From: a virus
Virus record (IMG/VR): IMGVR_UViG_3300035698_006717
Location: 41,410-105,409 of that record
DNA length: 64,000 nt
Strand: one strand, 5' to 3'
Of this stretch, positions 1-60,753 are shown piece after piece. The notes beneath the pieces were generated by a model. That model worked only from the letters and a program-made list of their open reading frames with translations, was not told the origin of the DNA and searched no databases. A program made the position numbers and the translations under genes. Positions within the stretch are counted from its first letter, which is position 1; each line of letters opens with the position of its first letter.

Positions 1-86
1 TTACATGAGGAAATTAAAACTGTATATGTGTATGAAGATGAAATTGAGACATGGAATACTGAATTCAGAAGAATAGGGTTATCAAA

Positions 87-5928: not shown

Positions 5929-5930
5929 CA

Positions 5931-8615: not shown

Positions 8616-8695
8616 TATCTCGCAATATATTTGCGATAAAGCAGATATTATCAGGCATCATGATATCCCGCAATATATTTGCGTTAAATCAGATA
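8604..8695. repeat. two ~39-bp direct repeats (48-bp period) with internal palindromes
   Basis: ATCATGATATC(T/C)CGCAATATATTTGCG(A/T)TAAA(G/T)CAGATA at 8609 and 8657; perfect palindrome GAGATATCATGATATCTC at 8604-8621. Confidence 0.9.
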
Positions 8696-8707
8696 GGAGC
8701 ATAAGTC

Positions 8708-9508
8708 ATGGGAGGATTCAGAGGAACTCAAAAAGCAGCTGTGGATAAGGTGATATCAGAAGACAAGCAGCCAGCTGGTAAGAGCACTTGCAATGCAGTT
8801 AGGAAGAACAGTGACGGATATTGTAAACTGCCAGGTGTTGAGGAATTTAGTAGATGTAGGTTACATGGTGGATCTAATGAGTTAGCTGTTGATATATTCA
8901 GAAAGGCTATGCCTTTGGAGAAAGCTGGCAAGCTTGAGGCTTTGCTGAATGATACTATGAGTATGGATAATGAGCTTGCTGCTGCTAAGACTATGTTAGT
9001 TCAAGAGCTTGAGAATTACAATAGGGCAAATTATGTATTGAACTCTTATGTTGAGCAGACTCCTGCGCGTCCTACTCCTGACGATCCTGATTTTGAGCGT
9101 GAGATGGTATCATATAATATTGCAACTGAATTGCATGCCATTATTATGGATAAGGCAGAGAATATGAGAGACAAGTCTTTTGATAATTCTCAGAAGCTGA
9201 TTCGTATTCTAAGTGAGGGAGTTACCAAGAATAATAAGATCAAGGAAGGTAACAAATTCCAGCTTGATGTTAAACAGATTAGCAGACTACTCAAGATACA
9301 GCTAGAGGCTCATCAATATTGCAAGGGGTGCCCGAAGTTGAAGTTAGTAGTGACTCATATTAAGGAGCACACTCAAGATATACCTCTGAACCCCAATTTC
9401 TCTAAGAAGAATAAGGAAGCAGTTGGCCGCAGAGCCTATAAGGATTTGGTAAGTGAAGTTGAGAGTAGAATGGGTGGCGCTGAGGAAGCTGAATTTGAAG
9501 TAGAATAA
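8708..9508 (+). CDS. HGGxSTG-like domain protein, putative terminase small subunit
   Basis: CNA.RK...YC...RCRLHGG motif followed by helical/coiled region, as in many TerS-like genes. Confidence 0.6.
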   Translation: MGGFRGTQKAAVDKVISEDKQPAGKSTCNAVRKNSDGYCKLPGVEEFSRCRLHGGSNELAVDIFRKAMPLEKAGKLEALLNDTMSMDNELAAAKTMLVQELENYNRANYVLNSYVEQTPARPTPDDPDFEREMVSYNIATELHAIIMDKAENMRDKSFDNSQKLIRILSEGVTKNNKIKEGNKFQLDVKQISRLLKIQLEAHQYCKGCPKLKLVVTHIKEHTQDIPLNPNFSKKNKEAVGRRAYKDLVSEVESRMGGAEEAEFEVE

Positions 9509-9554
9509 AATCAATACTCTTCAGTTTAAACAGAGGTATACTATAGATATATAG
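9507..9554 (+). promoter_or_regulatory. repeated early promoter, copy 1
   Basis: AAAATCA-ATACTC-17 nt-TATACT. Confidence 0.75.
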
Positions 9555-10561
9555 CGATAGCTAACTGAACTAGAAAGGCTGAACTAATTATGCTTCTCGC
9601 TGACCATGAATTCAATTTTCCAGAGGACAGGATGACAAATGCTATTAGAAGTAGGTTTGCGATAATGCTATCTTTGAATGGTATATGCAAATCTGATGTG
9701 TATGAACTTTCAAGAACCGATGGGAATTTGCTTGCAGTATGGAATAGATTTTATGAAGAATGGAAGAGTGATAAATCAGATTACTGTATGAGAGACTTTG
9801 CATTTATGTATGAGTGCTACAAATATGAGGAAGTAAAATTCACCATTTGGAGAACATATGCTATGTGGAGATTCCTTATGCGTAGCGCAGTTAGGATAAT
9901 GAGGTTTACTATACCAGTAACTCTAGTAATTGGGGCCTATATCTATTTCAACTAAAATTCAGCTATTTGAACGTATCGGCCTAGGCTATATTAAAGGTAA
10001 GGGAGGAAGGTACTATGTTTTCAATTGTAGCAGCTGAACTGAAGGGTGCAGAATAATGAAACTACAAGACTTATTTGAAGAAGCTGAGAAGGCAAGAAAG
10101 AAAACTGAATTGGTAGCAAAGCCACTTTATGAAGATTGGCATAATAAGCTAACAGATGCTATAGAGTATGCTTTCAAAACCAAAAAAGGTCAAGACATAT
10201 GTGGCCTACCCACTACTCCACTAAGGTTCAAATTTAAAGATGGAACAGTATTTGAAGTAAGACCTGCATATATGAATGCGCAAGGAGATTTCAAGAATGG
10301 CGTATTTAAATGGAGTGCAGGCGAAGTTTTCACGCTGAAGAAGATTCCTACACAACCATTTTAACGAGAGGAGTGTGATGTGGTGTAAGATAGTTGTTAA
10401 GTTGAAGGTAAGAGATCATAGTTGGTGGGAGGATATACCTGATGAGATTATGAATAGCGATGAACTATTGTCTAAATTTATTAAGACTGTCACCGACATC
10501 TTCAAACCGATAGATGTTGAGGTATATCCTGAAGAGCAAATTAATATGGAAGGAATTGTAA

Positions 10562-16880: not shown

Positions 16881-17270
16881 ATGGCTTGGAATCCTAGTAA
16901 GAAGAAGTGGGAAAGAGATCCAGAACTTCCTGCCCGTAATACCCTTAAGTGGATAGGGCTTACGAGTGAAGAGAAATATGACGTTAATCTTCAGTTGGGT
17001 CATAGCTGGGGATTCCAGAACGTAATACGTGACGTAGAGAACGCCCCGAATGTTGCTATTGAGAAATACTGTGGAGCCTTTCGTATGGGATTTGGGAAGA
17101 AGATAACTATTGATCCTGTTATCCGTAACGCTCTAAGAAAAGAGTTGATGAAGCGTTGCCGTGAAGGAATCTATATCTTTGCCTCTCGTAATGAGAAAAG
17201 AAAGCTGAGACCTGTAGCTCGTATGCATGATGGAGCACCGACTGGTAAACTCGTTAAAGAATCTGCCTGA
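16881..17270 (+). CDS. basic hypothetical early protein
   Basis: GAGGAG RBS after the promoter; hairpin GGGGGATT...AATCCCCC downstream. Confidence 0.7.
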   Translation: MAWNPSKKKWERDPELPARNTLKWIGLTSEEKYDVNLQLGHSWGFQNVIRDVENAPNVAIEKYCGAFRMGFGKKITIDPVIRNALRKELMKRCREGIYIFASRNEKRKLRPVARMHDGAPTGKLVKESA

Positions 17271-19986: not shown

Positions 19987-20313
19987 ATGGAACTGCCGAA
20001 GAATGTTTGCGCATCGCTGGCTGATAAGAAGCTAATAGTTGATGAGACTAAGAAACTTCTTGCTTATGCGCATGTTGCTGATGATAACCTTACTTGGCGC
20101 TTCCTAGCGGAGATGTTGGAGAATTCCTGCCGAGCTAATGCTGTTATTCAACTAGATTATTCCGAAGATGGTAGAGAAGGAAATAAGACTTGGTATATTA
20201 TAGAAGGGATGGGGATGGGTGAGAAGTTCCTCTATATTGACTGTTCTAAGGCTGATACTCCTAATTGGGAATATTCTTGGAGTGCTATCTATGATTTGAG
20301 AGATGAGAACTGA
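19987..20313 (+). CDS. acidic hypothetical early protein
   Basis: GAGGAG RBS after the promoter. Confidence 0.7.
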   Translation: MELPKNVCASLADKKLIVDETKKLLAYAHVADDNLTWRFLAEMLENSCRANAVIQLDYSEDGREGNKTWYIIEGMGMGEKFLYIDCSKADTPNWEYSWSAIYDLRDEN

Positions 20314-23229: not shown

Positions 23230-23495
23230 TTTATGATTGATTTAATACATGCTTATGCCACATCATGATCAGTCATGATCAAAGCATGCTTTCCACCGCA
23301 TATTCACGCCATTCATGATATCTACCTGATATATTCAGACTAATCAAAATTTCAGCTTCATGATATCTACAGTGTTATTTGCAAATAATCATTAAAATCA
23401 CATCATTGAGAAAATTCATTGGTTAGTCATAGTCATTGAATAGCAAAAATCATTGAAGATGTACATTCAGTGATTAGCAAAAGTCAATGACCTTG
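23230..23495. repeat. non-coding cluster of TCATGA / TCA(A/T)TG(A/G) motifs
   Basis: TCATGATC x2, TTCATGATATCTAC x2 (23312, 23357), repeated TCATTGA/TCATTGG/TCAGTGA/GTCAATGAC. Confidence 0.75.
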
Positions 23496-23598: not shown

Positions 23599-23961
23599 AT
23601 GAACCATCTGTTGTTAGAAAAAGCTATTAAGGATTTGGCGGTAAAGCCTCTAGGTAAGTTCTCTGAAACTGAGGAAATGTTTAAGCGCTCCGGCTCTATA
23701 GGAGCTATTGCACTTGCACCCTACCTAAAAGGGGATAATGAATACTATGCTGACGAGGGAGACGAAGGCTTCTTGATGGAATGGGTTGAAATGTTTGATA
23801 AGCTAGAACCTCTAGCGGGTGCGGTTGAATTTACGGATACTGTTTCTGGTTGTGACGTAAATGTTAAGTGTTTCTTTGGAACTATACTTGTTAAGTGGAT
23901 AAATGAGGTAGGGGGAGTTTCCCTATCTGTTTTTGATATAGAAGCGTATATGGTTTTGTAG
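23599..23961 (+). CDS. acidic early protein, paralog A
   Basis: Aligns end to end with 24596-24952 (LG.FS, LKGD.EY, SGC.V.VKCF.G.ILV.W.N..G..S.S.FDI). Confidence 0.8.
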   Translation: MNHLLLEKAIKDLAVKPLGKFSETEEMFKRSGSIGAIALAPYLKGDNEYYADEGDEGFLMEWVEMFDKLEPLAGAVEFTDTVSGCDVNVKCFFGTILVKWINEVGGVSLSVFDIEAYMVL

Positions 23962-24035: not shown

Positions 24036-24371
24036 ATGAAAGGTTCTACTGTTTATGAAAGCCTAGAAGATCTAGTGAAGGTACTAGGTGATAGTAAAGA
24101 TTGCAAATACTTGTTAGAAGATATAAAGGAACGGCTTGAAAAGGCTTTGGGAGAAAGAAAACCTTATAGCGTATCTTGGGTAAGTACTGAAACTGATTAT
24201 GCTACTGCTACCGCTATGAGCTTGTTAGTCGATAGCAGAGAGGGTGATACTTGGGTAAGCGAAGAAGGTGAAGAATTCTATAAGCTGATTAATGCGGTTG
24301 ATGAAACTCTAATCGTTATAGAGATGAATATTCCTGGTATGAGTGATTACCTTCTAGTGACGTATATTTAA
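24036..24371 (+). CDS. acidic hypothetical early protein
   Basis: AGGAGG RBS; about 23 D/E vs 11 K/R; no Gln or His. Confidence 0.75.
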   Translation: MKGSTVYESLEDLVKVLGDSKDCKYLLEDIKERLEKALGERKPYSVSWVSTETDYATATAMSLLVDSREGDTWVSEEGEEFYKLINAVDETLIVIEMNIPGMSDYLLVTYI

Positions 24372-24413: not shown

Positions 24414-24516
24414 GCAAAAGTCAATGACCTGAGGAAAATTCAATGGCACAAATTCAACCCAGAAATTCAATGATCAAAACTCAATGATCAAAACTCAATC
24501 GTCAAAACTCAATGAC
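24414..24516. repeat. 14-bp tandem-like repeats AAAA(C/T)TCAATGA(T/C)C
   Basis: AAAAGTCAATGAC, AAATTCAATGG, AAATTCAATGATC, AAAACTCAATGATC, AAAACTCAATCGTC, AAAACTCAATGAC. Confidence 0.85.
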
Positions 24517-24595
24517 GAGTATTATATAGACAGGGCTAATCAAGCTTGATTAGAGTATATTACCCTTATACCCTAACCCCTCTAGGAGGCAGAAG

Positions 24596-24952
24596 ATGAG
24601 ACAGCACGCGTTGGCTAGTGAGATTAAGAAAGCGGCGGGAGGTAAAGCACTAGGTGAGTTCTCCCTAGCGAACCATATGTTTGATACTTCGGACGTAGTA
24701 GTAGCAAAGGCTTTGACCCCCTTCCTTAAGGGAGATGACGAGTATTTCGTTAGCGACGATGAGGAGGCTTGGAAAGATGATTACCTGATTAGCTTTATTG
24801 ATATAATCCCTACGGCGGGAGAGGTACGGTTTGACGATACTGACTCTGGTTGCTCCGTACACGTTAAGTGCTTCTACGGACTAATCCTAGTACGTTGGAC
24901 TAATAGCGCAGGGGCTGATTCTATCTCTGCTTTTGATATACCTGAGTTATAG
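24596..24952 (+). CDS. acidic early protein, paralog B
   Basis: Paralog of 23599-23961; AGGAGG RBS. Confidence 0.8.
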   Translation: MRQHALASEIKKAAGGKALGEFSLANHMFDTSDVVVAKALTPFLKGDDEYFVSDDEEAWKDDYLISFIDIIPTAGEVRFDDTDSGCSVHVKCFYGLILVRWTNSAGADSISAFDIPEL

Positions 24953-24967
24953 AAAGGATCTGAATTT

Positions 24968-25000
24968 GGCTCTCCTACCCTAAGGAGAGCCTTCATTTTA
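24968..25000 (+). terminator. intrinsic terminator
   Basis: GGCTCTCCT-loop-AGGAGAGCC then TTCATTTT. Confidence 0.65.
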
Positions 25001-25009
25001 CATACCATA

Positions 25010-25450
25010 CGTCATTGGTTTGTACTGTATATGTAAGGACATATGGTAAGCCAATGAGTTGTTCTGTATATGTAATGACATATGTTAGAGCAGGTGATAG
25101 AGCATATGGTAAACCAATGACTATGTAATGTATGTAATAGCATATGGTAAGACAAGTGATAGGACATATGTAAAGAGCAAATGGTATGTGTGTGATACCA
25201 ATGTACTGTACTGTAAATGTAAGGACATATGGTAAACCAATGACCTGCTATATGTGTGTGTAATAGCATATGGTAGGACAAATGTAAGTTCAAATGATAT
25301 GCTATACATTGAGCTGTTATATGTAAATGTAATAGCAAATGTAAGGACATATGGTAAACCAATGACTATGTAATGGAATGTTAAACAAATTGTTAAACAA
25401 ATGTTGTGAAATGTTAAACCAGTGAAATAAATGTAAAATGTTTACCAAGT
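25010..25450. repeat. degenerate array of CANNTG/CANTG motifs, often 12 bp apart
   Basis: e.g. CATATG-ttagag-CAGGTG-atagag-CATATG-gtaaac-CAATG; 30-bp AAATGTAAGGACATATGGTAAACCAATGAC at 25215 and 25337. Confidence 0.9.
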
Positions 25451-26107
25451 TGATATCTACCATATACCATTGGCTAGTTGATTTTATTTGAAACTGATAT
25501 CCTTGTTGCTGCTGTGATTAGCTTGATTTCACAATACACTGATTTCTTTTGGCTTTTCCCCGTTTTGCCATGATTTGGTAATTCAATGACTTTCTCGGAT
25601 TTCCGAAAAAAAGCGGAAAAATCCGAATTTACCCTAAATCGGGCGAATTACCCGAAGTCGGTATAAATACCCGAAAGCGGGTAGAAGGTACTATTTAAGG
25701 GGCTTAAATAGGGGCCGTTTAAGGGTTAAATACGTTTAGAGCCTAGGAAGGTTATTTAAGCGGATTAAGGGAAAACTAATTAACCGTATTAGGTAAATCT
25801 TCTAAGTCCTTTAAAATAGGGTAGTTACGGAGGGCGGGCTTTTAGGCGGATTCTATTTAAACGGTTAAAAAGATAGTTTAAGGTTTTTAAACTAGATAGA
25901 GATTCTAGTTTAAATCGCTGAAGGCGAATTAAATAAAACGTCTTTTTTAGTACTATTAAGACGTTTTTTAAGGCGACTGCTCGCGAGCAAATCTACTTAA
26001 GATATTAAGTTTTCCCCGATAGGGGCTTTAATCGAGTATATTTACTATAACGCCGCTACCCGCTACGGGCTACGGCGATAATCTATTACCCTTATAGGGG
26101 GTTTCTT

Positions 26108-26377
26108 ATGGTCTCGAATTCACTTACTCTAATAGCTTCGGTGACGAACGATCTACCTACTATATATAGGGTCGCTACGGTTAACCCCTTCGCCGCCCTA
26201 CTACCTATCGCCGCCATAGTCGCCGCCGTATACCTTATAGCTTTAACGGTCTACGTGGCGAACGACTACGCCGTTAATACTAATTTACTAAGAATAGAAA
26301 GAGAGGAGCCTATAACCTTAAGAAAGAGCTTTATAGTCGAATACAATAACGGAACTAATAAAACCGTAAACGCTTAG
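26108..26377 (+). CDS. small membrane protein
   Basis: Hydrophobic segment FAALLPIAAIVAAVYLIALTVYV; AGGGGG RBS. Confidence 0.65.
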   Translation: MVSNSLTLIASVTNDLPTIYRVATVNPFAALLPIAAIVAAVYLIALTVYVANDYAVNTNLLRIEREEPITLRKSFIVEYNNGTNKTVNA

Positions 26378-26432
26378 TCTATTACTTCGAATTCACCAAA
26401 TTTTTAAACCGTAAAAGAAAAGAGTTACTACT

Positions 26433-26960
26433 ATGACTACGAAAAAGAATACTACCGCCGCTCCCGTTTCTAAGATCGTTCGCCACGCCGCCGCCGCTCC
26501 CGTAGAGACTCCCGCCGCCGCTACCGTAGAGAAGGTTTCGCTACTATCGGAAAAGGATTTTATTTCTTACGCCGAAAAGAGCGGGACTCCCGCCCTAAAA
26601 TCTTTCGGAAACGTAGGGAGTCGAGTATACGCGAATCCTACCTTTTCGGGAACTACGGCCTTTATTATAGCGGCTCTTTCTACCGTCGATACCAAACGTA
26701 CTAGTTTTACGGTCGCCGATTTCGATTCGGGTATACGGTCGATGAAAACGAAGGAGAACTGGGAACGACTCGACGCTATTTTTAATACGTTCCGTTCCCG
26801 TTTCGCGAGTAACCGTAAAGGCGAAAAACCTTCCCTCGCGAGCAAGTATAAAAGTCCCGTAAAATCTTTACGGACTAGCGGAGTATATAAAGCGTTCGAC
26901 GTTTCCGCTATCGGGACTCCCGAACTAAGAAAGTCCTTCGGATTCGCGGCGGGGAAATAG
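26433..26960 (+). CDS. basic hypothetical protein with Ala/Pro-rich N-terminus (possible DNA binder)
   Basis: 175-aa ORF followed by a strong terminator; no Gln or Cys. Confidence 0.75.
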   Translation: MTTKKNTTAAPVSKIVRHAAAAPVETPAAATVEKVSLLSEKDFISYAEKSGTPALKSFGNVGSRVYANPTFSGTTAFIIAALSTVDTKRTSFTVADFDSGIRSMKTKENWERLDAIFNTFRSRFASNRKGEKPSLASKYKSPVKSLRTSGVYKAFDVSAIGTPELRKSFGFAAGK

Positions 26961-26989
26961 ATCGTTCGCCACCAATAGGCGGATAATAT

Positions 26990-27018
26990 AGGGTAGTCTT
27001 CGGACTACCCTTTTTTTA
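26990..27018 (+). terminator. rho-independent terminator with UUCG tetraloop
   Basis: AGGGTAGTC-TTCG-GACTACCCT-TTTTTT. Confidence 0.92.
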
Positions 27019-27190
27019 TACCTTCCCCGCTCCCTTCCTTCCTTCGTTCGTTCGCCAGACTCCCTCCCTTCCTATAATACCCTAAATCGCCGCTACGGGA
27101 CTTTCGCCCTCATAGGTATAGCTAGGATAGGGTATATCTTCCCCGCCTTATACGGGCCTTCTACGGGCCTTATATAAGCTATTTAGAATA

Positions 27191-27300
27191 TACCTTAAAT
27201 CGGGTAGAATACCCGAATTTATATAGTCGGGCTTTTTACCCGAAGTCGGGTAGAATACCTTATCGGGTAAAATACCCGAAGTAGGGTAATATACCCTAAT
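27191..27300. repeat. cluster of TACCCGA/TCGGGTA motifs in both orientations (matching cluster at 25621-25690)
   Basis: TCGGGTAGAATACCCGA, TACCCGAAGTCGGGTAGAATACC, TCGGGTAAAATACCCGAA. Confidence 0.85.
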
Positions 27301-27580
27301 AATTTAAGCGCTTAAGGGGTAGGGCGTATGCGAACGATTTTATTTTCTAGGTAGCCCTACTTTGGCACCCAGCACACACCGTGAACATTTTTGCCAAGAT
27401 TACCATGCTCAGAATATTTCAGGCAATACTACAAATGAAAAAGCCCACATACCGAAGCATGCAGGCTGAAAAATATTTACAGAAATTTTTTCTGCTGAAT
27501 TTACAATATATACTTCTTGGAATCATCCTTATAGAAAATGGATATAGTTACATCTAGATAGAATTTCATCGCCCAACTCC

Positions 27581-30453: not shown

Positions 30454-31536
30454 TTACGAAGTCGCCCTTGGCGATTTGGGCCGAACGACGTGAGCCGTAA
30501 CATTTCTCTTTTGTTCCGCCTTATCAGGATAAGTCTTTTGGTTCTTCACAATAGATTTGGTTTGTACCCGTCTATTCTTTACTAAAATTCTAAAATACGG
30601 GCACTTTCCATTGATTGATAGATCCTTTTCATCATTCCCTTTTCTGAACTTAACTATTTCAAATTGCTTTGGATTGAACTTATGGAGAAATGTTATTGGC
30701 ACACCTATAAACCCTTTGTAGTCTGATGGTATATCCTTTGTCTTATTAACATTTATACCATCATAGTTGTCATACTTGGGATATTGAGCTTCATTTCCGT
30801 AGTATCTTTTGGTGAGTGGAATATCTTCGTGCCGTTTAAACGTATCTAAGTTAGTCAACCATAGACAATTGTTTGGAGAAACGATTCTGTTCCCAAAACT
30901 ATCTATCCGAGCTTCTGTTCCATAAAGTTCATAGTGTTCGGGAACAATAAAACCAGAGACCCCTCTACCAATGTTTATTCCTAACCATGCTTTGTTTTCT
31001 TTTATAAGCTTGAAATCTTCCTTATAAGTTATTGCATTGATATTCCCAATTATCAAGAACTTTTTATGGTACTTGACCAATTGAGCTACGTATTCTCTGA
31101 ATAATGAAAATGGAGGGTTAGTAACTACAATGTCAGACTGTTTCAGTAGTTCAATGCTTTCTGAACAACGGAAGTCACCATCCCCAGCAAAGTGAATAAT
31201 GTCGGTTGAGCTTGGTTTGCTTCTTTCACCCTCCGTACCAGTATATTCAAAGTAGAAACCATTTTCATCTTCCGCGGTGTTAAACAAATCTCTTACTTGT
31301 TCCCTGTAACAAGCCGCTATCAATTTCTTGAGACCTAATTCCTCAAAGTTTGAAGCAAAGTAACTATAAAAGTTACTAATTTGAGGGTCATCGCAATTGC
31401 AAAAGACCACCTTGTCTTTAAAGTGGCTCTTATAATGCTTCAATTCACTTTCTATATCTGAAAGTTGCGTGTAGAACTCATCGCTTTTTGATTTCTTAGC
31501 TTTTTGTAATAATCTGTTTGTTGCTTTCCTTGTCAT
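30454..31536 (-). CDS. adenine-specific DNA methyltransferase, M.EcoRI family
   Basis: DEFYT, CNCDDP..SNF, GDGDFRC.E, VVTNPPFSLFREY, YPKYDNYD.INV, GVPITFL.K.NP.QFEI. Confidence 0.9.
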   Translation of the reverse strand: MTRKATNRLLQKAKKSKSDEFYTQLSDIESELKHYKSHFKDKVVFCNCDDPQISNFYSYFASNFEELGLKKLIAACYREQVRDLFNTAEDENGFYFEYTGTEGERSKPSSTDIIHFAGDGDFRCSESIELLKQSDIVVTNPPFSLFREYVAQLVKYHKKFLIIGNINAITYKEDFKLIKENKAWLGINIGRGVSGFIVPEHYELYGTEARIDSFGNRIVSPNNCLWLTNLDTFKRHEDIPLTKRYYGNEAQYPKYDNYDGINVNKTKDIPSDYKGFIGVPITFLHKFNPKQFEIVKFRKGNDEKDLSINGKCPYFRILVKNRRVQTKSIVKNQKTYPDKAEQKRNVTAHVVRPKSPRATS

Positions 31537-35426: not shown

Positions 35427-36104
35427 TCACTCTCCTATGAAGTCTCTAGCATATACAGATTTGTGAGCATGCACACCGTCCTCAGTACCTATATGCTGAA
35501 CATATGAAGGCATAGTACAGTACATACTCCAATTTTGACTCCTAGCTTGCTTGCTCATGGTATACTCCCAACCACTTGGTTCGTGTAAAGTCTCTATGCA
35601 ATCTCTACAGAATTCCCTAGTGATTAGACAACCAAATATCCCAATACTTAATTTCTTCAGTACACGGATAGTCCCTTCATTATTAAGATTGATAGATTTA
35701 GATGCTTTGTGACCTTTATAATTGTATACTGATATTGCTCCAAGAAATTTATCCATAGCCTTAGATCTGTTGTACCTATCAATCAATACATTATACCATT
35801 CGCTATTAAATATCATATCAGAATTTAGATTGATAACGCCTTCTAAGTTTTTATGGATACTAAACATCTGAGCAAGAGAGTTCCTAGTTCTGCTTGAGCA
35901 GTTAGACCTAACTTGCATATTCATCTCAGCAGGAGGTATCTTCAGCTTAGATAGAATTTCCATTAGCTTAGTCTTATCATCAGATCCGTCATCAAATATG
36001 TACAAAGGTGGTAAGTTAGTAGATTTGTTTAGAGAGTCTATTGTCCTTTCTAATAGATCAAATCTATTACAAGTTATCAGTATTGCTGCAAAAGAAGGAG
36101 TCAT
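35427..36104 (-). CDS. glycosyltransferase, GT-A/GT2-like
   Basis: ITCNR...L..TI.SL, IFDDGS, NSD, VQHIG. Confidence 0.85.
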   Translation of the reverse strand: MTPSFAAILITCNRFDLLERTIDSLNKSTNLPPLYIFDDGSDDKTKLMEILSKLKIPPAEMNMQVRSNCSSRTRNSLAQMFSIHKNLEGVINLNSDMIFNSEWYNVLIDRYNRSKAMDKFLGAISVYNYKGHKASKSINLNNEGTIRVLKKLSIGIFGCLITREFCRDCIETLHEPSGWEYTMSKQARSQNWSMYCTMPSYVQHIGTEDGVHAHKSVYARDFIGE

Positions 36105-36925
36105 AACATCCCCAACATGTCTTTAATGTTTCTGATTACCACAGATACCTGCGGCTGCCAATTACAATCATCTAATACCCTACACTTAGTCCCAAATGGA
36201 TTCCAAGATTTTTCATAGCGGTGTTTGTTGTTTCCTTTTGCTCCACCCCATCTTCTGCTGTCAGTCCATACTAAATGTTTAGTTCCGCATAAACTGGCAA
36301 GATGCATAGGGCCGCTACTTGGGCCTATGACAAGCCTAGAACTAGCCATCATATCTGTTATAGTCTCCAAAGGCTTTCCCAAAAAGTTATCAGTATGAGG
36401 TATCCATACTGCATTCTTCTGAGTACCTATGCAAGCCATCTTTAACTTGCTCTTGAAGTATTCTGTAACTTCGTTCCATTTGGCTATAGGCCAATCTCTG
36501 TTCTGCGTCTTACGCTTATTGCAACTTCTTGCGTGTATTATTAGATCATACTTATCCTTCTTAGATTTGATTCCAAGTTTAAGGAAGTTCTGATCTTCAT
36601 GCCTCATAGCAGTAGTCTCTTTAGTAGGTCTGAACCATATTAGCTTACAACCTTTGTATTTATCTTGTATAAGTTTCCATTCTCTTTCTGAAAATCTTGG
36701 ATCACCTAATCCTCTAGTCATCCAACATTCGCAATTCTTATCATACTTAGAAGGAATAATCTCATCGGTAAAATCTTTGAATAGTAGTTCAGTACCAGGC
36801 AAAGTGGCAACAACTACTTTGTGATACTTATTGCTAGATGCTTCCATCCTACAACGTGCGTGGTACCTCATTAAGAGCCAACCGAACTCTCCTACCCAAG
36901 GCCCACATAGGAGTACTTTCTTCAT
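36101..36925 (-). CDS. glycosyltransferase, GT9 (heptosyltransferase)-like
   Basis: GEFGW, RDWP..KW, IGPSSGPMHLASLCG. Confidence 0.8.
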   Translation of the reverse strand: MKKVLLCGPWVGEFGWLLMRYHARCRMEASSNKYHKVVVATLPGTELLFKDFTDEIIPSKYDKNCECWMTRGLGDPRFSEREWKLIQDKYKGCKLIWFRPTKETTAMRHEDQNFLKLGIKSKKDKYDLIIHARSCNKRKTQNRDWPIAKWNEVTEYFKSKLKMACIGTQKNAVWIPHTDNFLGKPLETITDMMASSRLVIGPSSGPMHLASLCGTKHLVWTDSRRWGGAKGNNKHRYEKSWNPFGTKCRVLDDCNWQPQVSVVIRNIKDMLGML

Positions 36926-37909
36926 CTAACTGTTTCTCCATTTCTTAACAGTTTCAATAGCATTTACAATACCTTTGGCTGCAACTTCCAAAGACAAGTT
37001 CTCTAGATAGTATTCTCTAGGTGAAAAACTATCTATATTGTTAAGCATATAATCTACTGCATCCCATAAAGTATCCTCAGTTGCTATTATGCCAGTTTTA
37101 TCATTAATGTACTTTTCAGTCCAAAATCTTACGCTATCTAAAACAACTATAGGTAGATTACAAGCTAACATTTCAGGTATAACTCTAGGACAACTATCTA
37201 CAGAGGCTCTAGAACACACGATACCACACTTGCATTTAGAGTACTCCTTAGCTATATCTTTCCGTAGAACGCGGTGACATACCACATTTGTCGGCTTCTT
37301 ACAGGGTGATACGTTACCTAAGTTAAGTATATTAAGCCTACAACGTGCTGTAGAGTACACAAGCTCGTGTCCTTTTATCTTGTATTGGCTTCCGTTGGCA
37401 GGAAAGCATACGTCATATACCTTCTCGCGCTCATAGGGAACCATAATATTATCAGGAGCTGGCTTTATGAATAAGATTGCAGGAATATCTGGGAATAACT
37501 GTTTGCAATTAGTAACCTGAGAAACAGAATCTTGTAGTATCAAGTCATAATCTGTAAATCCTTTTTGAGGCAGATACCTCTTACCTGCTCCATAGTAAAC
37601 CTTGAAAGCATCTGGGAACCTCTTGAGAATTTTGTGGTATTCTGAGAAGCCGCCTCTACAGAATATAACATCTGGAGTAAAGTTCAAAGACCATTGCTTG
37701 AAATCTGGTACTCTAATTTCTGCAAAGTTATTTTTAAATTCATGATACCGATCACCTCCCCAATATGCTACAACTCCAGCATCTTTTGGGCCAACCATAG
37801 AATACAGAAGTTGAGTCCAAACATCATCACAATCTTCAACTTGGCTGAATATAGTTTCAGATGGATTCCTATCTGTAGGGTGCTTACCTCTAAGCATTAA
37901 ATAAATCAT
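36926..37909 (-). CDS. glycosyltransferase, GT-B/GT4-like
   Basis: KGHEL, DSCPRVIPEMLACNLPIV. Confidence 0.8.
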   Translation of the reverse strand: MIYLMLRGKHPTDRNPSETIFSQVEDCDDVWTQLLYSMVGPKDAGVVAYWGGDRYHEFKNNFAEIRVPDFKQWSLNFTPDVIFCRGGFSEYHKILKRFPDAFKVYYGAGKRYLPQKGFTDYDLILQDSVSQVTNCKQLFPDIPAILFIKPAPDNIMVPYEREKVYDVCFPANGSQYKIKGHELVYSTARCRLNILNLGNVSPCKKPTNVVCHRVLRKDIAKEYSKCKCGIVCSRASVDSCPRVIPEMLACNLPIVVLDSVRFWTEKYINDKTGIIATEDTLWDAVDYMLNNIDSFSPREYYLENLSLEVAAKGIVNAIETVKKWRNS

Positions 37910-38648
37910 GGTTCCCTCTTATCCTTGACTCAACAAGTGCTATATCTTCAACAACATCTACTGCGTGAGAATTAGTGTGCACTGGTAACATGTACACCTT
38001 ATACCCATTTTCCAAAGGTCTTAACATACAAATATCTTCTGCCTTCTCTATATAGCCTTTTTCACAGTCTCTGAATAGATCAATAATTGCCGCTCTCTTG
38101 AATACATAAACGCACACCTGCTTAAGAGGATTGCTATACACATTATTTCTATTATATGGTAACGGAGTCCTGCTCATATATATGAGTTCATTTATATGGT
38201 TGACTAATACATGTATGCAATTAGATGTACGGAAATACATATCATCTTTAACTGTAGTGTAACAATTCAGCAAGTGATAACTATTCCTTATTTCTTTGAA
38301 GGACATAATAGCATACTCTATAAGAGAAGTCTCAAGTATAGGTTCGTCACCTTGAACATTTACAATTATCTCCTCATCTAATTGCAATGCAGCTTCTGCT
38401 ACTGCTTCATTACCAGTAGTGTTATTACCAGTAGTCATTCTTGCTTCAACTCCACGCTCTCCCCAAAACCTTTCAACGTGAGATACTATCTCTGAATTAG
38501 GAGTAGCAACATACACATTAGTATCTTTTACTTTCAAGCAGTTCTCTATTACCATATCAATCATCATTTTACCATTTATAGCTGCAAATGGTTTCCTAGG
38601 GAAACGCTTGCTTTCTAACTGAGCTGGAATTACAATTGCAGTATCCAT
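37890..38648 (-). CDS. kdsB: CMP-KDO synthetase-like acylneuraminate/ulosonate cytidylyltransferase
   Basis: VIPA.L.SKRFP.KP.A.I.GK.MI, IVNVQGDEP, YMSR.PLP, AVDV.EDI. Confidence 0.88.
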   Translation of the reverse strand: MDTAIVIPAQLESKRFPRKPFAAINGKMMIDMVIENCLKVKDTNVYVATPNSEIVSHVERFWGERGVEARMTTGNNTTGNEAVAEAALQLDEEIIVNVQGDEPILETSLIEYAIMSFKEIRNSYHLLNCYTTVKDDMYFRTSNCIHVLVNHINELIYMSRTPLPYNRNNVYSNPLKQVCVYVFKRAAIIDLFRDCEKGYIEKAEDICMLRPLENGYKVYMLPVHTNSHAVDVVEDIALVESRIRGNHDLFNA

Positions 38649-39616
38649 TATACCACTCTATTCTTTAAAGGGTTGTCATTAAAGAAATCTATTAATGCTT
38701 TGGCAGCACCAGATTCCATATCTAGTCTACTCTGTTCAGTACAAGATCCAAGGTGAGGGGTAAGATAAGCATTCCCCATAGTAGCCAACTTATCTCTGTA
38801 AGGTTCTTCCATAAATGAATCAATAGCTACTGTGGCTTTAGGGGAATCATTAAGCCACATAAATAGATCCTCTTCATTTATTATACCGCCTCTTGACATA
38901 TTGAGTAGCCGTACATTATCCTTCATACTGTACAGTTCTTTTTTGGTCAGGTAATCATAATTGCTTATTATCTGATCCTCAAGAGGAATGTGAATAGTTA
39001 TAACATCACATTTTGCCAGTATATCTTGCTTGCTTGCTCTTTTCCATTCTGGCATAGGATTCAGAGTCCCAGTAAATTCTAAGTCGTGAACTAGCAAATC
39101 GCAGTCCATGCTATTTAGAATTTTGTATACTATTTTGCCAATACGCCCATAACCTATTATCCCAATTGTACAGTTCTTAAGCTCCCGCCCTATGTATCGG
39201 TTCCACTTGTCATTACTCATATCTTCGCTGACATTCTGTACCTTACGGAGCATATTTAGCATCTGACATATAGTAAGTTCTGCAACTGCGTTAGATGGAG
39301 CCTCTGGAGTATATGCTACCACTATACCGCGCCTCTTGCACTCATCCAAATCTACAGAATCTAATCCAATACCTACTCTTGATATTATCTGTAGATTCTT
39401 ACAAATATCTAAAGCCTCTATATCCCAATTTTCAGTACCTGCTATTACAGCAGCAGGGTTAGCTGACCTTAACTCTTGTAAGAATTCTTCCCTATTGTAT
39501 TTACGCTTTTGGGAGTTCATCTTGAAACAAGTAATGCCGCCATCCTGCAATATCTTGATAGGCTTTTTATTTGTATGCCCAAATGGGTAGGTAGTGATAA
39601 TTGTAGTAGCTATCAT
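38648..39616 (-). CDS. D-isomer 2-hydroxyacid (phosphoglycerate-like) dehydrogenase
   Basis: SRVGIGLDSVD, AVAELT, GIIGYGRIG, NMSRGG, TPHLGS. Confidence 0.92.
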   Translation of the reverse strand: MIATTIITTYPFGHTNKKPIKILQDGGITCFKMNSQKRKYNREEFLQELRSANPAAVIAGTENWDIEALDICKNLQIISRVGIGLDSVDLDECKRRGIVVAYTPEAPSNAVAELTICQMLNMLRKVQNVSEDMSNDKWNRYIGRELKNCTIGIIGYGRIGKIVYKILNSMDCDLLVHDLEFTGTLNPMPEWKRASKQDILAKCDVITIHIPLEDQIISNYDYLTKKELYSMKDNVRLLNMSRGGIINEEDLFMWLNDSPKATVAIDSFMEEPYRDKLATMGNAYLTPHLGSCTEQSRLDMESGAAKALIDFFNDNPLKNRVV

Positions 39617-40308
39617 GGTAGTAAGTTCTCCAATTCTCCAATTGAGTTTCTTATCATTAGTGCATCAATACTGAATGCAACAAGACCGTACCTTCTATAC
39701 TTAAGATAATACTCGTTAGTGTCTTCAACTAAATGGTATCCTCTTTTTCCTTCTGGTATTATATCAGCAAATGTTCTCATAGCTCTTCTGAACCCTTGAG
39801 TATCAAAATCTCCTGCTTTGCCATATGATTTAGATAGGTCATATGGCCCAACCATAAAGCAGCTTATATTATCACAATTCTCTAAAGCAACTAAGTTGTC
39901 TATTGCTATATTGCTTTCTATTTGTATCATTTGCAGAGGTTCTTTATTGCAAAGCTCCATTCTTCCCCATCTATTCTCTCTACAGTACCCAACTCCTCTT
40001 GAAGGGTATTTACATATTCTGTTAATCTTATGTATCTGAGGCACACTATCAATATTGGCAAAAATTACTCCATCAGCTCCTGCATCTAAACACATCCTTA
40101 CTAGCCTCTCATCTATTGTAGGAACTCTAATAATAGGAGAGCAGTCGCAACGGCTAATTATTTGTATACAGTTGAATATAGTTTCATCATTGAAGCATCC
40201 GTGTTCAAGATCAAGAACTACTCCATCATATCCAATAGCACTTGCAAGCATTTCAGAGATTAATGGAGAAGGTATTTGTTGCCAAAGAACCTTCATTTGT
40301 TTAGACAT
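39613..40308 (-). CDS. HpcH/HpaI class II pyruvate aldolase
   Basis: LDLEHG, IRVP, LDAGADG, QIES, VGPYDLS. Confidence 0.9.
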   Translation of the reverse strand: MSKQMKVLWQQIPSPLISEMLASAIGYDGVVLDLEHGCFNDETIFNCIQIISRCDCSPIIRVPTIDERLVRMCLDAGADGVIFANIDSVPQIHKINRICKYPSRGVGYCRENRWGRMELCNKEPLQMIQIESNIAIDNLVALENCDNISCFMVGPYDLSKSYGKAGDFDTQGFRRAMRTFADIIPEGKRGYHLVEDTNEYYLKYRRYGLVAFSIDALMIRNSIGELENLLP

Positions 40309-40955
40309 AGAACACTCCCATCATAGAATTTTGAATAGATAGTTGGAGTTATAATCTTGAATTTTATTCCTGCTTTATCTATATTCTGTAAGACTCTGTA
40401 TATGAAGTGATCTTTCTTCTTTTCCCAATCCATATTATCAGAATCAGTAAATCCTTCTCCATAACAATGCTGAGTACCTTCTTGAGGATTAGAATAACCA
40501 TCTGCACCTATAACATATATATTCTTAGCTCCCATAAGATGAGCTATCATTATTGCCAAGTTGCCACCTATTCGGTAGAATCCTTGTATCCTATTATTCT
40601 TGTATTCTATAGGTTCATTCTTATTGTGGAAGTCATCAGTATACGGAATAGTACACTTACTATTTGATTTATCTTCAACACACTTTAGAGTATCAGAGAA
40701 TAGATGGCTTCCTAGTAGTAATGTAGAAGATGGTTGTATGCATTTGTGAAAACGCTTCAGCCTTTTATTGTTTACCCATAAATGATAATGAGGTTTATAG
40801 AAATGAGTCATCTTATTGATGCCAATAACTACTGGATTAACCTTTCTTGACATCCAATCCTTTATCTTATCATCATATAGACGTACTGAATTAGCAGAGC
40901 CATATATTAGAAAATCTCTGCCCCTATGGTAATTAATTAGTTCTGAGAATTTCAC
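40293..40955 (-). CDS. Maf/DUF115-like (sialyltransferase-type) glycosyltransferase
   Basis: FLIYGSANS, VIGIN, A..IAHLMGAKNIYVIGADG. Confidence 0.65.
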   Translation of the reverse strand: MKFSELINYHRGRDFLIYGSANSVRLYDDKIKDWMSRKVNPVVIGINKMTHFYKPHYHLWVNNKRLKRFHKCIQPSSTLLLGSHLFSDTLKCVEDKSNSKCTIPYTDDFHNKNEPIEYKNNRIQGFYRIGGNLAIMIAHLMGAKNIYVIGADGYSNPQEGTQHCYGEGFTDSDNMDWEKKKDHFIYRVLQNIDKAGIKFKIITPTIYSKFYDGSVLCLNK

Positions 40956-41736
40956 CTTCGCCCCATATCATATCTGTTAATTTTTTCACATCTGGATCAA
41001 ATACTATACTTCTCCAAGTTTCATCATTTTCGTATAATTTCCATCTATTCAGCACATCCATTTCCTGAGCATTACCATCAAATTGTTTACCATTAAAGCT
41101 ACTACCTATTCCATAATTAGGAATTTTATTCAAACCTCTATCAGTATGCTTTAGGCCAAGCATATTGGATATTGCTTTTCTGGATGATTCACTACGGAAC
41201 CAATTATTAAAGTCTATGCAAACAGAATACTCAGGCAAACTATCCTCATAACCTAAATAGCTGTTATAATATTGCTTCAGCAGTCTTTTATATTTACCAT
41301 TCACAATCTGACTGTGTACATAGTTCAGCCTACTAGCTGTCATATTATATGGATCACGGATAGGAAGAACAAAGCATTTTATCTTACTCTTACCATAATT
41401 ATGGTTTGCTATCCTATCCATATTATCCTTAGTAATTTCCACTTCCTCATATCTAGTTATGAGGCATTTCCTATCAGCATATGGATTAGTATCCAAACTA
41501 AGCTGAGGCATCTTATAGTTGTATATACTATGCTCTTGTTTCTTCCTGAATATCTCAGGCTTAAGCGCAAATGTCTTAGGATCAGTATTTAGAAGATGAA
41601 CCTCTCCATCTCCAAAATGATTGATAACCCAATTCATTATGGCATTACTACCGCTACGCTTCATACATAGGAAAATGAATTCATATTCATTCTCAATCTG
41701 AGATAAACGATCTCTGTTAAATGTCACATGTGACAT
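40933..41736 (-). CDS. sulfotransferase-like P-loop protein
   Basis: MKRSGSNAI.NW, IRDPYN.TASR, GSSF...VLNRW. Confidence 0.7.
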   Translation of the reverse strand: MSHVTFNRDRLSQIENEYEFIFLCMKRSGSNAIMNWVINHFGDGEVHLLNTDPKTFALKPEIFRKKQEHSIYNYKMPQLSLDTNPYADRKCLITRYEEVEITKDNMDRIANHNYGKSKIKCFVLPIRDPYNMTASRLNYVHSQIVNGKYKRLLKQYYNSYLGYEDSLPEYSVCIDFNNWFRSESSRKAISNMLGLKHTDRGLNKIPNYGIGSSFNGKQFDGNAQEMDVLNRWKLYENDETWRSIVFDPDVKKLTDMIWGEGEILRTN

Positions 41737-42194
41737 TATACGCTCCACTTGCATATTTGTACAGGACATTCTATATTGAGAGCTATACAACAAGCTATTC
41801 TATGATGTCCTTCCCATATCTCACCACTAGCATATTTGGCAAATGGAACCAAAGGAGCCTCTAAAATAATAACAGGATTAGTAACTCCATTATTCAGTAT
41901 ATCTCCATACAAAGCTCTGAATTTGTCAATCTTATCTTCAATCCACTTATGCTTCCTACCATACAGCTTCTGCATCTTATAGTATGGCCCACTAAACCTA
42001 TTCATTAGTAGAGCTACGTGAGGAGAGTATATCATTCTCAAAGGTCTTTTAACATGAGATGTTGTACAAGATAAATATGCTTGATATCTATCGGGATTAT
42101 ATTGAGCACAAATATTCCTCAAGTCAGATGATTCTATAGTGCGCTCTGAAATAACTTCCAACTTAACTCTTTTGCAAAATCTATTGAAGTTCAT
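41736..42194 (-). CDS. ParB/sulfiredoxin-like domain protein
   Basis: I.NNG..NPV.I, IWEGHHRIA. Confidence 0.65.
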   Translation of the reverse strand: MNFNRFCKRVKLEVISERTIESSDLRNICAQYNPDRYQAYLSCTTSHVKRPLRMIYSPHVALLMNRFSGPYYKMQKLYGRKHKWIEDKIDKFRALYGDILNNGVTNPVIILEAPLVPFAKYASGEIWEGHHRIACCIALNIECPVQICKWSV

Positions 42195-42445
42195 CCTACC
42201 AAGTAATCCTTTCCCATACGTTTTATGACAGCCTTTTCATATTCTGGATTTTCCTCCCACCAGTCTTTATCAAATTCCTTGCTATTCTCATATAACTTCT
42301 TTGACATCTTCTTAGCCATCTTTTGGCATTCTGAAAGGCGCTTCCTAACTTTTAGATCATGTCGAGTATCTGCTTGGTGCATATCATTAACTTCTCTGAG
42401 GACTTCGCATAAAGTCCTTTTGTTGTTTGCAAATCTCATGCTCAT
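42191..42445 (-). CDS. hypothetical protein
   Basis: ATGA overlaps on both sides. Confidence 0.65.
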   Translation of the reverse strand: MSMRFANNKRTLCEVLREVNDMHQADTRHDLKVRKRLSECQKMAKKMSKKLYENSKEFDKDWWEENPEYEKAVIKRMGKDYLVG

Positions 42446-43089
42446 CTGTTCATAAACCTTTCATAAGTTTCTGAAAATGGTAGAAGACCAAACTTAGATC
42501 CACTTTTCCATAAACAATATGCTAGACTAATCTGATCTCTGTATGTATACTTCCGTATCTCTTCCCACCACATTTCCATCAAAGAAGTCACTCTTGCATT
42601 ATTTCTTCGTAACATTATGCCAGGAGCAAATAGGCCAAATTCTTTAGGAAATCCATCTGTACCATAATGAAACAGTTGCTGACTTATTACAGAAGGGGAT
42701 GCTATACCTTGGTTGATAACATAATCACCTTCACTGTAAGCACAATTCCTCCTATTGTGTTTCATTACAGCTATGTCATCAAATCCTAGATGAATTCTTA
42801 GGAATGAATCAAGATTAGTCTTAATTGTGAATCTAGCATCAAGGAAAAGAGAGTAGTTAAACTTTGGCAAGTAATTATGCTGCAATATCTTGATCTTTCT
42901 AGATAGCTTCTGATTGGTTTGATTCTTATCTTGTATTTCAATAAGCTCCCATTTGCTATCCTTCCTTATCTTCAGATTCTTATTCCTGCTATAGAAGCAT
43001 ATGTGCTTCCAATCTTTATTCTCTGCAATTGGTTCATGCAGTTCATATTCATTACCTATTATGGTAGTGTACACAATCTTATCTGCCAT
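42442..43089 (-). CDS. DUF616/TOD1-MUCI70-like glycosyltransferase domain
   Basis: VYTTIIG.EY, SRKIKIL.H, FLDA, H..RNC.Y.EG, RDQISL.Y.LWK. Confidence 0.8.
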   Translation of the reverse strand: MADKIVYTTIIGNEYELHEPIAENKDWKHICFYSRNKNLKIRKDSKWELIEIQDKNQTNQKLSRKIKILQHNYLPKFNYSLFLDARFTIKTNLDSFLRIHLGFDDIAVMKHNRRNCAYSEGDYVINQGIASPSVISQQLFHYGTDGFPKEFGLFAPGIMLRRNNARVTSLMEMWWEEIRKYTYRDQISLAYCLWKSGSKFGLLPFSETYERFMNR

Positions 43090-43651
43090 GCTCTAGGCTC
43101 CAAGTGTGAAGTTTTAATTTTCTGCGCTCCAGTTGAGAAATCAATATATTGTGTTGTTCTTCTTCCATCCTTATCTTCTTCCAGTGCCAAGCTACATGTA
43201 GCTCATTAATCCATTCTATAGTACCATCACCAATCATTTTATTAAGAACTCTATATTCGGCCCCTTCTATATTCAGCTTGCATACAATATGGTCAGTAGG
43301 CTTGCAGTGTTTTTTAATCCATTCGCTGAAATCAATACATTCAACTTTCATATCGTTAGTTTTATGATGATGAATTATCCTCTTGTTCTCTAACAGAGAG
43401 CTTGACTCACTATACTGATTGACTCCTGTCTTAAGAGTTTTGATACAATTAGTATCCCAAACAGCTTTTCCAATAAACTCTACCTGACCACCATATCCTT
43501 TCTTTCTGATGTTCTTTCTCATCTTTAACATTATCTCAGAATTACACTCAAAAGCATATATCATATATTTGCAAGTATCATCACAGTTCTCAATAAAGTG
43601 AATGGTAGAGTTGCCCTTCCAAGCTCCGCAGTCTAGAAATATTTTTCTCAT
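43079..43651 (-). CDS. FkbM-family methyltransferase
   Basis: FLDCGAWKG, YAFECN, AVW, KLNIEGAEY. Confidence 0.88.
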   Translation of the reverse strand: MRKIFLDCGAWKGNSTIHFIENCDDTCKYMIYAFECNSEIMLKMRKNIRKKGYGGQVEFIGKAVWDTNCIKTLKTGVNQYSESSSLLENKRIIHHHKTNDMKVECIDFSEWIKKHCKPTDHIVCKLNIEGAEYRVLNKMIGDGTIEWINELHVAWHWKKIRMEEEQHNILISQLERRKLKLHTWSLEHGR

Positions 43652-43654
43652 AAC

Positions 43655-44197
43655 CTACTTCCACATCAGCTGACGGTTACATTTTCTGACAATAGTGATG
43701 CCATAGTAGAATGGCAGAGTAACTATTTCACAATCATTCTTACAAGTATTCCTTATCTCTGAAGCAGTCTCCCAACAATCATTGCAGTGATCATCAATAA
43801 ACTCTTTTGATGGAGGGTAAGTATCATGAAGAAGAATTATACCATTATCACTAACATGAGGAAAAGCGTTAGCAAAGTCTAATAGGGAGGCATCCTTCTT
43901 ATGCTGGGCATCTATAAATACCAAATCAAATTTCAAGTCATTAGGTATCTCCATAAAGAACTGGTTAGTACTTCTACCATAATATATGCCATTAGTAGCT
44001 CTCATATATTTTTTGTTCACAGCTTTTATTTCTACCGCATATGCTGTCTTTGCAAAAGGGGCTACTACGTTGAAACAATTACAAGCCCTTACTCCTAATT
44101 CAAGATAGTTCTCTAATGCGCCTGCTTCCATCAGTCCTTCTGCAATAGTCTTAACTACCCTAATGTGACTATTCTTATCAAATGGCATCTTCATCAT
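43655..44197 (-). CDS. class I SAM methyltransferase (Methyltransf_24-like)
   Basis: YLELGV, FDLVFIDA.H, GIILLHDT. Confidence 0.88.
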   Translation of the reverse strand: MMKMPFDKNSHIRVVKTIAEGLMEAGALENYLELGVRACNCFNVVAPFAKTAYAVEIKAVNKKYMRATNGIYYGRSTNQFFMEIPNDLKFDLVFIDAQHKKDASLLDFANAFPHVSDNGIILLHDTYPPSKEFIDDHCNDCWETASEIRNTCKNDCEIVTLPFYYGITIVRKCNRQLMWK

Positions 44198-60720: not shown

Positions 60721-60753
60721 GAGTTGAAACGCTAATATGATATGAATTTATGT

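Follow-up and report, generated by a model that had tools for sequence, protein, structure and literature searches.

MazF-type mRNA interferases are specific for ACA, and ACA-less transcripts stay functional; T4 endonuclease IV has a preference for (T)CA on single-stranded DNA, and in vertebrate RNA viruses CpG is suppressed, genome-wide and partially, against ZAP. A precedent for a reader of a bare dinucleotide is CmdT, a defense enzyme that acts on GA in single-stranded RNA, i.e., in mRNA, and weakly in single-stranded DNA, and whose authors judged escape by site loss to be implausible (10.1101/2024.02.24.581662). Among phages, the 10.2-kb left terminal repeat of T5 (positions 1 to 10219) has lost the recognition site GAATTC from the first-entering DNA (zero copies). 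The Escherichia coli phages of Wifcevirus have a terminal repeat of ~3.7 kb (PMC6563267), and their isolates are reported to be insensitive to almost all tested defense systems, including restriction-modification, with the exception of EcoP1_I type III, no genome protection mechanism being known for them (PMC11990801). Here we describe, in a 64,000-nucleotide (nt) stretch of phage DNA (the window; bases 41410 to 105409 of the 105,409-bp IMG/VR contig IMGVR_UViG_3300035698_006717), a sharply bounded island of about 1.8 kb from which 5′-CA-3′ has been almost completely purged on both strands, i.e., as CA and as TG. Literature searches found no published description of a CA/TG-free phage island.

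Between positions 25591 and 27360 there are 13 CA and 9 TG, precisely the 22 counted by hand in a preliminary description of this DNA, where base composition predicts 113.7 and 104.3 (~218). This corresponds to observed/expected (O/E) ratios of 0.11 for CA and 0.09 for TG and to a Poisson probability, P(≤22 | 218), of 6e-65. When 500-bp windows were scanned across the full contig, the sliding-window check that had been suggested at the outset, the mean CA/TG O/E was 1.12 (standard deviation, 0.17); six consecutive windows in the island gave 0.05 to 0.16 and none outside it fell below 0.6, the island thus being unique in the contig. Ranked by length, the top seven CA/TG-free runs in the genome also lie inside it, as do 10 of the top 12, the maximum elsewhere being 61 bp. 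On the left, the final outside CA/TG is at 25587 and the next one at 25919, a gap of 332 bp that matches the ~330 bp first noted; on the right, a single CA/TG at 27329 precedes the return of dense CA/TG at 27363. Both edges are therefore as sharp as had been described (transitions at 25587/25589 and 27362/27363). The 13 residual CA comprise 1 ACA, 7 CCA, 2 GCA, and 3 TCA, every NCA context being purged. CG and TA are correspondingly abundant (O/E 1.75 and 1.53, versus 0.49 and 0.94 window-wide). CpG is depleted genome-wide (O/E 0.49) and TG is mildly in excess, the island being the sole CpG-rich part.

The island is not a product of chimeric assembly, an objection that the preliminary description had itself raised. 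In Logan contigs from four salt-lake metagenome runs belonging to four different studies (X1 to X4), the sequence recurred with zero differences and both borders were bridged by independent contigs: X1 record 2 corresponds to 24481 to 27564, while X2 records 12 and 14, X3 record 18, and X4 record 27 bridge one border each. Base composition or codon bias does not explain the depletion either. Synonymous codons were shuffled among positions, with the protein and the codon usage kept, and the CA/TG at codon junctions were counted; the shuffled open reading frames (ORFs) had 16.2 junction CA/TG for ORF1 and 32.3 for ORF2 versus 2 and 2 observed, and three further shuffles in the same test gave 29.3, 12.2, and 21.6 versus 7, 1, and 0 (P < 1/2000 each). 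Recoding with genome codon usage yielded 32 CA/TG for ORF1 and 63 for ORF2, versus 6 and 6 observed. None of the three TG in ORF2 is avoidable, as they stem from the ATG start, a Met codon, and a Trp codon.

A context-specific mutator, similar to a deaminase or to repeat-induced point mutation (RIP), had been put forward as an alternative, and C-to-T changes at CpA would indeed yield TA enrichment; the sharp borders and foreign-looking composition would be compatible with a mutator as well as with a foreign mobile insert or a chimera. However, the CG enrichment matches that of TA, the ORFs are intact and conserved at 30 to 43% identity with an invariant Trp and the ATG starts kept, and CA/TG is actively avoided at codon junctions. 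The joint rise of CG and TA points to selection via synonymous routes (NCA to NCG, NNC-A to NNT-A, NTG to NTA) rather than to a one-way deaminase, and a deaminase/RIP footprint, i.e., TA gain only in decayed genes, is not what these ratios and the intact, conserved genes show. Against an insert, the locus of a related phage is syntenic, promoter motifs are common to the island and the rest of the phage, and no integrase, transposase, or recombinase domain was detected among the window proteins with Pfam and PHROG; against a chimera stand the independently bridged borders. We regard all three explanations as essentially excluded. The depletion is natural and selected at the dinucleotide level, reaching into protein composition.

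As to the encoded proteins, previously reported as 264 amino acids (aa) with no Gln or Cys, one His, one Trp, and three Met, the composition of ORF1 (89 aa) and ORF2 (175 aa) agrees. ORF1 has no Gln, Cys, His, or Trp and one Met, and ORF2 no Gln or Cys, one His, one Trp, and two Met, compared to a genome background of 10.5% for the five residues together. ORF1 is a small protein with one hydrophobic segment that probably forms a transmembrane helix; small hydrophobic peptides, read by eye from the sequence, occupy the same position in relatives. Neither ORF had a Pfam or PHROG match. A word-indexed protein search with ORF2 returned only ORF2 itself; an exhaustive HMMER search identified 16 homologues, most at 30 to 43% identity. 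An identical ORF2 is also carried by a 7.2-kb contig. In 13 of the 14 homologues aligned with ORF2, the five residues make up 1.2 to 2.7% of the protein (6.3% in the remaining one), and one Trp is invariant across the family. Judged from these comparisons, ORF2 founds a new protein family. Its AlphaFold (AF2) model (predicted local distance difference test score, pLDDT, 75) and its sequence gave nothing usable in Pfam, PHROGs, PDB sequences, Foldseek against PDB and BFVD, or the ESM Atlas, and the best hit of the model in a wide VIA-align search (Z 4.7) was not convincing. Viral contigs searched with ORF2, the family alignment, and the two flanking proteins showed no match, and neither did genome contigs; four IMG/VR fragments carry a 77%-identical portal, none of them reaching the island.

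Six metagenomic loci (L008 to L013) encode the ORF2 family, each within its own sharp CA/TG-free island, and L008 is syntenic with the window, sharing the 208-aa protein of the right arm. The preliminary description had considered that relatives might carry the same genes with normal CA/TG; the opposite was found, the same gene occurring in the same purged state. The layout is conserved too. From left to right, it consists of a CA/TG-rich, CG-free array, the border just after a TCA(A)TGAC element, one or more small hydrophobic peptides, the family gene, a terminator, a CA/TG-free tail of 240 to 470 bp (containing a CT-rich tract as well as promoter-like repeats specific to each phage), a conserved G-rich block across the right border, a spacer of ~200 bp, and the convergent arm. 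The repeats bracketing the islands differ among phages, each set matching motifs elsewhere in its own phage (e.g., TTTACTTATA is found both inside and outside the L009 island), which again argues against a foreign insert. The purge is ancient and family-wide. A related, more abundant phage in run X1 (one contig, depth ~40), compared over 27302 to 27489, shares 27439 to 27489 with five differences, continues to the left into CA/TG-free sequence of its own, and is missing 114 bp of the spacer.

A second tier of CA avoidance, new here, is observed upstream of the island, where it is confined to the sense strand of the first cistrons in neighboring early units. Five small plus-strand genes have a sense CA O/E of 0.15 to 0.40 in all three codon phases, few Gln and His, and normal TG (Table 1); most of them encode small acidic proteins (isoelectric point [pI], 4.3 to 4.5). 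The CA-poor first cistrons share a promoter, AAAG(T/A)CAT(T/A)ACT..TCAG, ~8 nt, GGTATAT.., TATACCCGAACCGATAGGAG, and the CA-free zone starts right behind the last CA of its upstream element, the downstream cistrons being near normal. This early promoter/leader (~60 nt, then ATG; sites at 11833, 16820, 18728, 19920, 21377, and 23968) does not resemble a standard sigma-70 promoter. L008 and L009 display the same sense-strand CA pattern. Such a strand-specific bias cannot come from a duplex-reading factor and points to mRNA or else to a single DNA strand that is exposed. Within the islands, in contrast, the bias is symmetric, with 35 non-obligatory sense CA versus 34 sense TG in 12 island genes; together with the purged tail beyond the terminator, this indicates a DNA-level component in the island.

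The purge could reflect avoidance of the phage's own DNA mark, whereby the phage would modify a base in the CA:TG step genome-wide and the cassette and the immediate-early template strands would have to stay unmarked to be read from incoming virion DNA. A mark of this kind would fit the symmetric, DNA-level purge with its sharp borders and its inclusion of untranscribed DNA, and CA avoidance on the sense strand is equivalent to TG avoidance on the template strand. No fitting DNA modification gene was found, however, only ThyX, an EcoRI-type methylase, and small-molecule-type methyltransferases, with many ORFs unannotated; moreover, CA is near normal in downstream cistrons of the same early operons, so that the polymerase must cope with marks. 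We consider this explanation unlikely.

Contrary to what the preliminary description had proposed, the purge is not general restriction site avoidance. CA or TG occurs in only 16 of the 64 six-base palindromes, and those without either are not depleted in the island (31 observed versus 22 expected). GAATTC is present twice, GATC three times, TCGA 10 times, and CGCG five times, and TTAA and TATA are 2.5-fold enriched. An EcoRI-type adenine methyltransferase is encoded at 30454 to 31536 on the minus strand (430 bits to PF13651), and the island keeps its two GAATTC. The original model, in which the first-injected double-stranded DNA is stripped of CA/TG to evade restriction- or BREX (bacteriophage exclusion)-like defenses recognizing duplex DNA before protective genes act, would be consistent with the location of the equivalent Wifcevirus island in the terminal repeat, the reported insensitivity of Wifcevirus isolates to almost all defenses tested (EcoP1_I excepted), and the absence of GAATTC from the T5 terminal repeat. 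Yet the undepleted palindromes, the small share of palindromes that the purge can affect, the strand-specific CA avoidance in the adjacent cistrons, which it leaves unexplained, and the normal CA/TG of T5 first-step-transfer DNA all count against it, and we know of no double-strand nuclease with a two-base site. We therefore rate it as improbable.

The comparison with T5 first-step transfer made in the preliminary description holds as an analogy of position and fails as one of mechanism. T5 resembles the window in its early genes, which include small membrane proteins and a DNA-binding protein, in the loss of a recognition site, and perhaps in a repeat-rich signal at the inner edge; it differs in that CA/TG is normal in its terminal repeat (O/E 0.64 to 1.27) and the avoided unit is a 6-bp site. 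Homology to the T5 pre-early genes (A1, A2, and dmp) was rejected, there being no Pfam/PHROG match and an hhalign probability of 0.2% for the ORF2 family versus T5 A2.

Wifcevirus is the closer parallel. The island of ECML-117 lies at ~6.6 to 8.4 kb (O/E 0.2 to 0.5; CG ~2.0), that of Mansfield at ~1600 to 3500, where it fills the inner 2 kb of the direct terminal repeat predicted by PhageTerm (1 to 3673) up to ~170 bp from its inner boundary, and in WFC and WFH the island appears twice per record. This position lends indirect support to the idea of a genome end put forward in the preliminary description. As in the window, CA/TG is depleted on both strands with sharp edges, CG (~2.0) and TA (~1.3 to 1.5) are elevated, and ~2 kb of small genes with a terminator lie where a plus arm of small genes meets a convergent minus arm, with a strand-specific CA-poor stretch just upstream. 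In ECML-117 this stretch is found at 4400 to 4900 (CA 0.12 to 0.44, TG ~1.2) and, by coordinate mapping, just before the terminal repeat start, paralleling the second tier described above. Unlike in the window, the purge is weaker (O/E 0.1 to 0.5 versus 0.05 to 0.16) and there are genes on both strands; in addition, the terminal repeat position is known in Wifcevirus, whereas a terminal position of the island in the window is probable. The cargo is unrelated (hhalign probability of 0.3% for the ORF2 family versus the 208-aa Mansfield protein), indicating that the purge goes with position or role and not with ancestry, i.e., that it is convergent.

The elements of the island and its surroundings are listed in Table 1. 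In L008, TTTTCATGAC is the counterpart of the left-border TCAATGA element and occupies the equivalent place. The TACCCGAA core of the left array recurs in early-gene leaders at 18771, 19963, and 21420. The perfect palindrome TGCTCGCGAGCA may be an operator. The copies of another motif, AGATCGTTCGCCAC, together retain ~5 of the 22 residual CA/TG, so that it is probably functional. The counterpart of the terminator in L008 and L009 is a hairpin with a T-run downstream of the family gene, and the right-border block AAGGGG..GGGGGAGT..AAACGTA..TATT..TTGCAC..CACA is common to the window, L008, and L009. The CA/TG-rich repeat array that abuts the left border, to be compared with the repeat-rich stop signal of T5, has similar arrays recurring upstream, and comparable ones precede the islands or CA-poor units in L008 and L009. 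These arrays (25010 to 25588, 24414 to 24516, and 23230 to 23495) mirror the island, with no CG and dense TCAATGA/CATATG-type repeats. In the tail (27018 to 27365; 4140 to 4568 in L008), the CT-rich tract can pair with the G-rich block, so that the 350 to 430 nt of the tail would be closed by a long-range stem; compared to shuffled sequences, the z scores are modest (−2.5 and −2.1). Scanning the island for Rfam families and tRNAs gave nothing above threshold, and a sigma-70 promoter scan no excess (5 found versus 7.5 expected). The seven exact matches of the repeat motif TACCCGAAGTCGGGTA in IMG/VR, none in a depleted island, are attributable to chance, and the island with the surrounding 13 kb had no DNA similarity match among 50,697 phage records.

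TABLE 1 Features of the CA/TG-free island, its surroundings in the window, and the islands of relatives
Feature	Position	Strand	Remarks
Early first cistron	16881-17270	+	CA O/E 0.29, TG 1.25
Early-region ORF	18795-18983		Gene
Early first cistron	19987-20313	+	CA O/E 0.22, TG 1.33
Early cistron	23599-23961	+	CA O/E 0.22, TG ~1.1
Early cistron	24036-24371	+	CA O/E 0.15, TG ~1.1
Early cistron	24596-24952	+	Paralogue of 23599; CA O/E 0.40, TG 0.84
Adjacent non-coding array	25010-25588		CA/TG-rich (O/E up to 1.85), CG-free
TCAATGA element	25583-25589	+	Early-promoter element abutting left border; similar CA-bearing upstream element ahead of other early units
CA/TG-free island	25589-27362		1774 bp, 13 CA + 9 TG; O/E 0.10; only one in contig; sharp borders
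Left array	25625-25690		Palindromic TACCCGA..TCGGGTA-type repeats; repeat families D1-D3
Non-coding leader	25691-26107	+	TTTAAG-type repeats; hairpins 25886-25914 and ~25937-25972
Perfect palindrome TGCTCGCGAGCA	25978-25989		Holds 3 of the 22 residual CA/TG
ORF1	26108-26377	+	89 aa; ATG start; GGGGG ribosome-binding site
Inverted copies of repeat AGATCGTTCGCCAC	26141-26154 and 26254-26265		
ORF2	26433-26960	+	175 aa; basic, pI 10.1
Repeat AGATCGTTCGCCAC, copy 1	26473-26486		Inside ORF2
Repeat AGATCGTTCGCCAC, copy 2 (direct)	26959-26972		Overlaps ORF2 stop codon
Predicted intrinsic terminator, ORF1-ORF2 unit	26990-27017	+	
CA/TG-free non-coding tail	27018-27362		CT-rich tract; right TACCCGA/TCGGGTA array 27186-27300; G-rich block crossing border
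Predicted terminator, convergent right arm	27442-27467	−	80 bp outside island
Island of L008	2914-4564		
Island of L009	2894-4064		
Island of L010	3170-4340		
Island of L011	From 76 onward		

The repeat arrays, the conserved border block, and the long-range pairing of the tail, as well as the location between gene arms, might suggest that a segment for packaging, ejection, or replication initiation has its mechanical behavior or its binding of proteins adjusted by loss of the CA:TG step, which is flexible. Enrichment of TA, the other highly flexible step, speaks against this, as do the heavy protein cost of purging 800 bp of coding sequence and the strand-specific avoidance in the neighboring genes, which cannot be a duplex property; a physical role of the DNA is very unlikely.

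The gene map confirms that both arms converge on the island, as previously noted. The plus arm comprises the tail genes, replication genes (DnaE-type polymerase, DnaB, primase, and ThyX), SbcCD, and many small genes; the minus arm, ending in the terminator 80 bp past the island, a 5′-3′ exonuclease, a 15-kb sugar metabolism cluster, methyltransferases, and small genes. The sugar cluster (35427 to 51041, minus strand) encodes a cytidylyltransferase, an HpcH-type aldolase, a 2-hydroxyacid dehydrogenase, a sulfotransferase, at least seven glycosyltransferases, and several methyltransferases. A further glycosyltransferase, of 815 aa (60742 to 63189), lies beside the capsid gene, and the contig ends run into a putative Ser-rich repeat protein. 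The sugar and glycosyltransferase genes may serve virion glycosylation.

Contig ends recur to the right of the island, at 27564 in X1, 27567 in X2, and 27374 in X4, where another contig starts at 27565, and the L010 contig stops 11 nt beyond its own island border. The 3,084-bp X1 contig (24481 to 27564) has a depth of 9.2 compared to 4 to 6.6 for its neighbors, contig depth not being copy number. The recurrent ends near 27374 and 27564 to 27567 may be a hint that the genome ends physically, or that a repeat has its boundary, in this region, neither of which contigs can show.

Our preferred explanation, to which we assign a rough probability of 0.4, is that of an early, probably terminal cassette kept free of 5′-CA-3′ because a CA-reading factor, most likely of single-stranded nucleic acid, is active while the cassette must work. 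The conserved cassette consists of a promoter, a small, probable membrane protein, a basic protein of 150 to 175 aa, a terminator, and a structured non-coding tail, and it lies at the meeting point of the two gene arms. Purifying selection, acting over a long time on the dinucleotide itself, keeps 5′-CA-3′ off both strands, at the price of a 15-letter amino acid alphabet and a context-dependent codon choice. The cassette would be expressed early and, as in Wifcevirus, lie at or beside a terminal repeat or a physical end of the genome, and the factor recognizing 5′-CA-3′ would be active when it must function. This reader, either a host defense enzyme or the phage's own host-shutoff enzyme, would see mRNA, or else DNA strands laid open during transcription or when the ends of a terminal repeat are processed. 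A single-strand reader would explain why the first cistrons avoid CA on the sense strand only and the cassette, including its tail, on both: in a terminal-repeat segment, both strands could plausibly become single stranded during end processing. The cassette proteins would then be immediate-early takeover or counter-defense functions.

The known systems outlined at the beginning resemble this scheme in part. MazF and T4 endonuclease IV are, like the postulated reader, single-strand nucleases with a short CA-containing site, but the island is purged in every NCA context rather than in a single trinucleotide; neither a MazF nor a denB homologue was detected. In CpG suppression against ZAP, too, a nucleic acid sensor imposes selection on a dinucleotide, whereas the purge in the window is local, near total, and sharply bounded and also shapes protein composition. 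CmdT differs in reading GA rather than CA, and the window does show site loss, limited to a small cassette.

Several points weigh against a CA-reading factor. No CA-reading enzyme was identified in the genome, its early genes all being orphans in Pfam and PHROG, and to our knowledge no such enzyme has been described. The terminal position would follow from the analogy with Wifcevirus, and early expression is predicted solely from the size of the genes, their promoters, and where they lie. For a single-strand reader, it must be assumed in addition that the island has both of its DNA strands exposed at some point, while a double-strand reader or a DNA mark would be the simpler explanation for a tail that is purged symmetrically beyond the terminator. 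Of the competing explanations, we would place the phage's own mark first, followed by a host reader of double-stranded DNA and then by a mechanical property of the DNA.

Avoidance of a motif classically betrays a nucleic acid reader that is itself unseen; here the motif has only two bases, and its avoidance is near total, confined to one cassette with base-pair-sharp borders, and strong enough to nearly remove five amino acids from a whole protein family. That salt-lake phages and E. coli phages converge on this signal despite their unrelated cargo implies a selective agent, powerful and specific but as yet without a name, at the very start of infection. It is conceivable, if doubtful, that an undiscovered class of enzymes reading bare 5′-CA-3′ in single-stranded RNA or DNA is a widespread weapon between phages and hosts, for defense or shutoff, and that unrelated lineages such as the salt-lake phages and Wifcevirus independently evolved CA-free "safe-mode" cassettes at the genome end, with reduced-alphabet proteins expressible while the enzyme is active. 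As Wifcevirus grows on laboratory E. coli, the question is directly testable. The CA/TG signature also offers an easy computational means of flagging immediate-early or terminal cassettes in the genomes of uncultured phages, and the cassette proteins illustrate how natural proteins have evolved with an alphabet of 15 letters.

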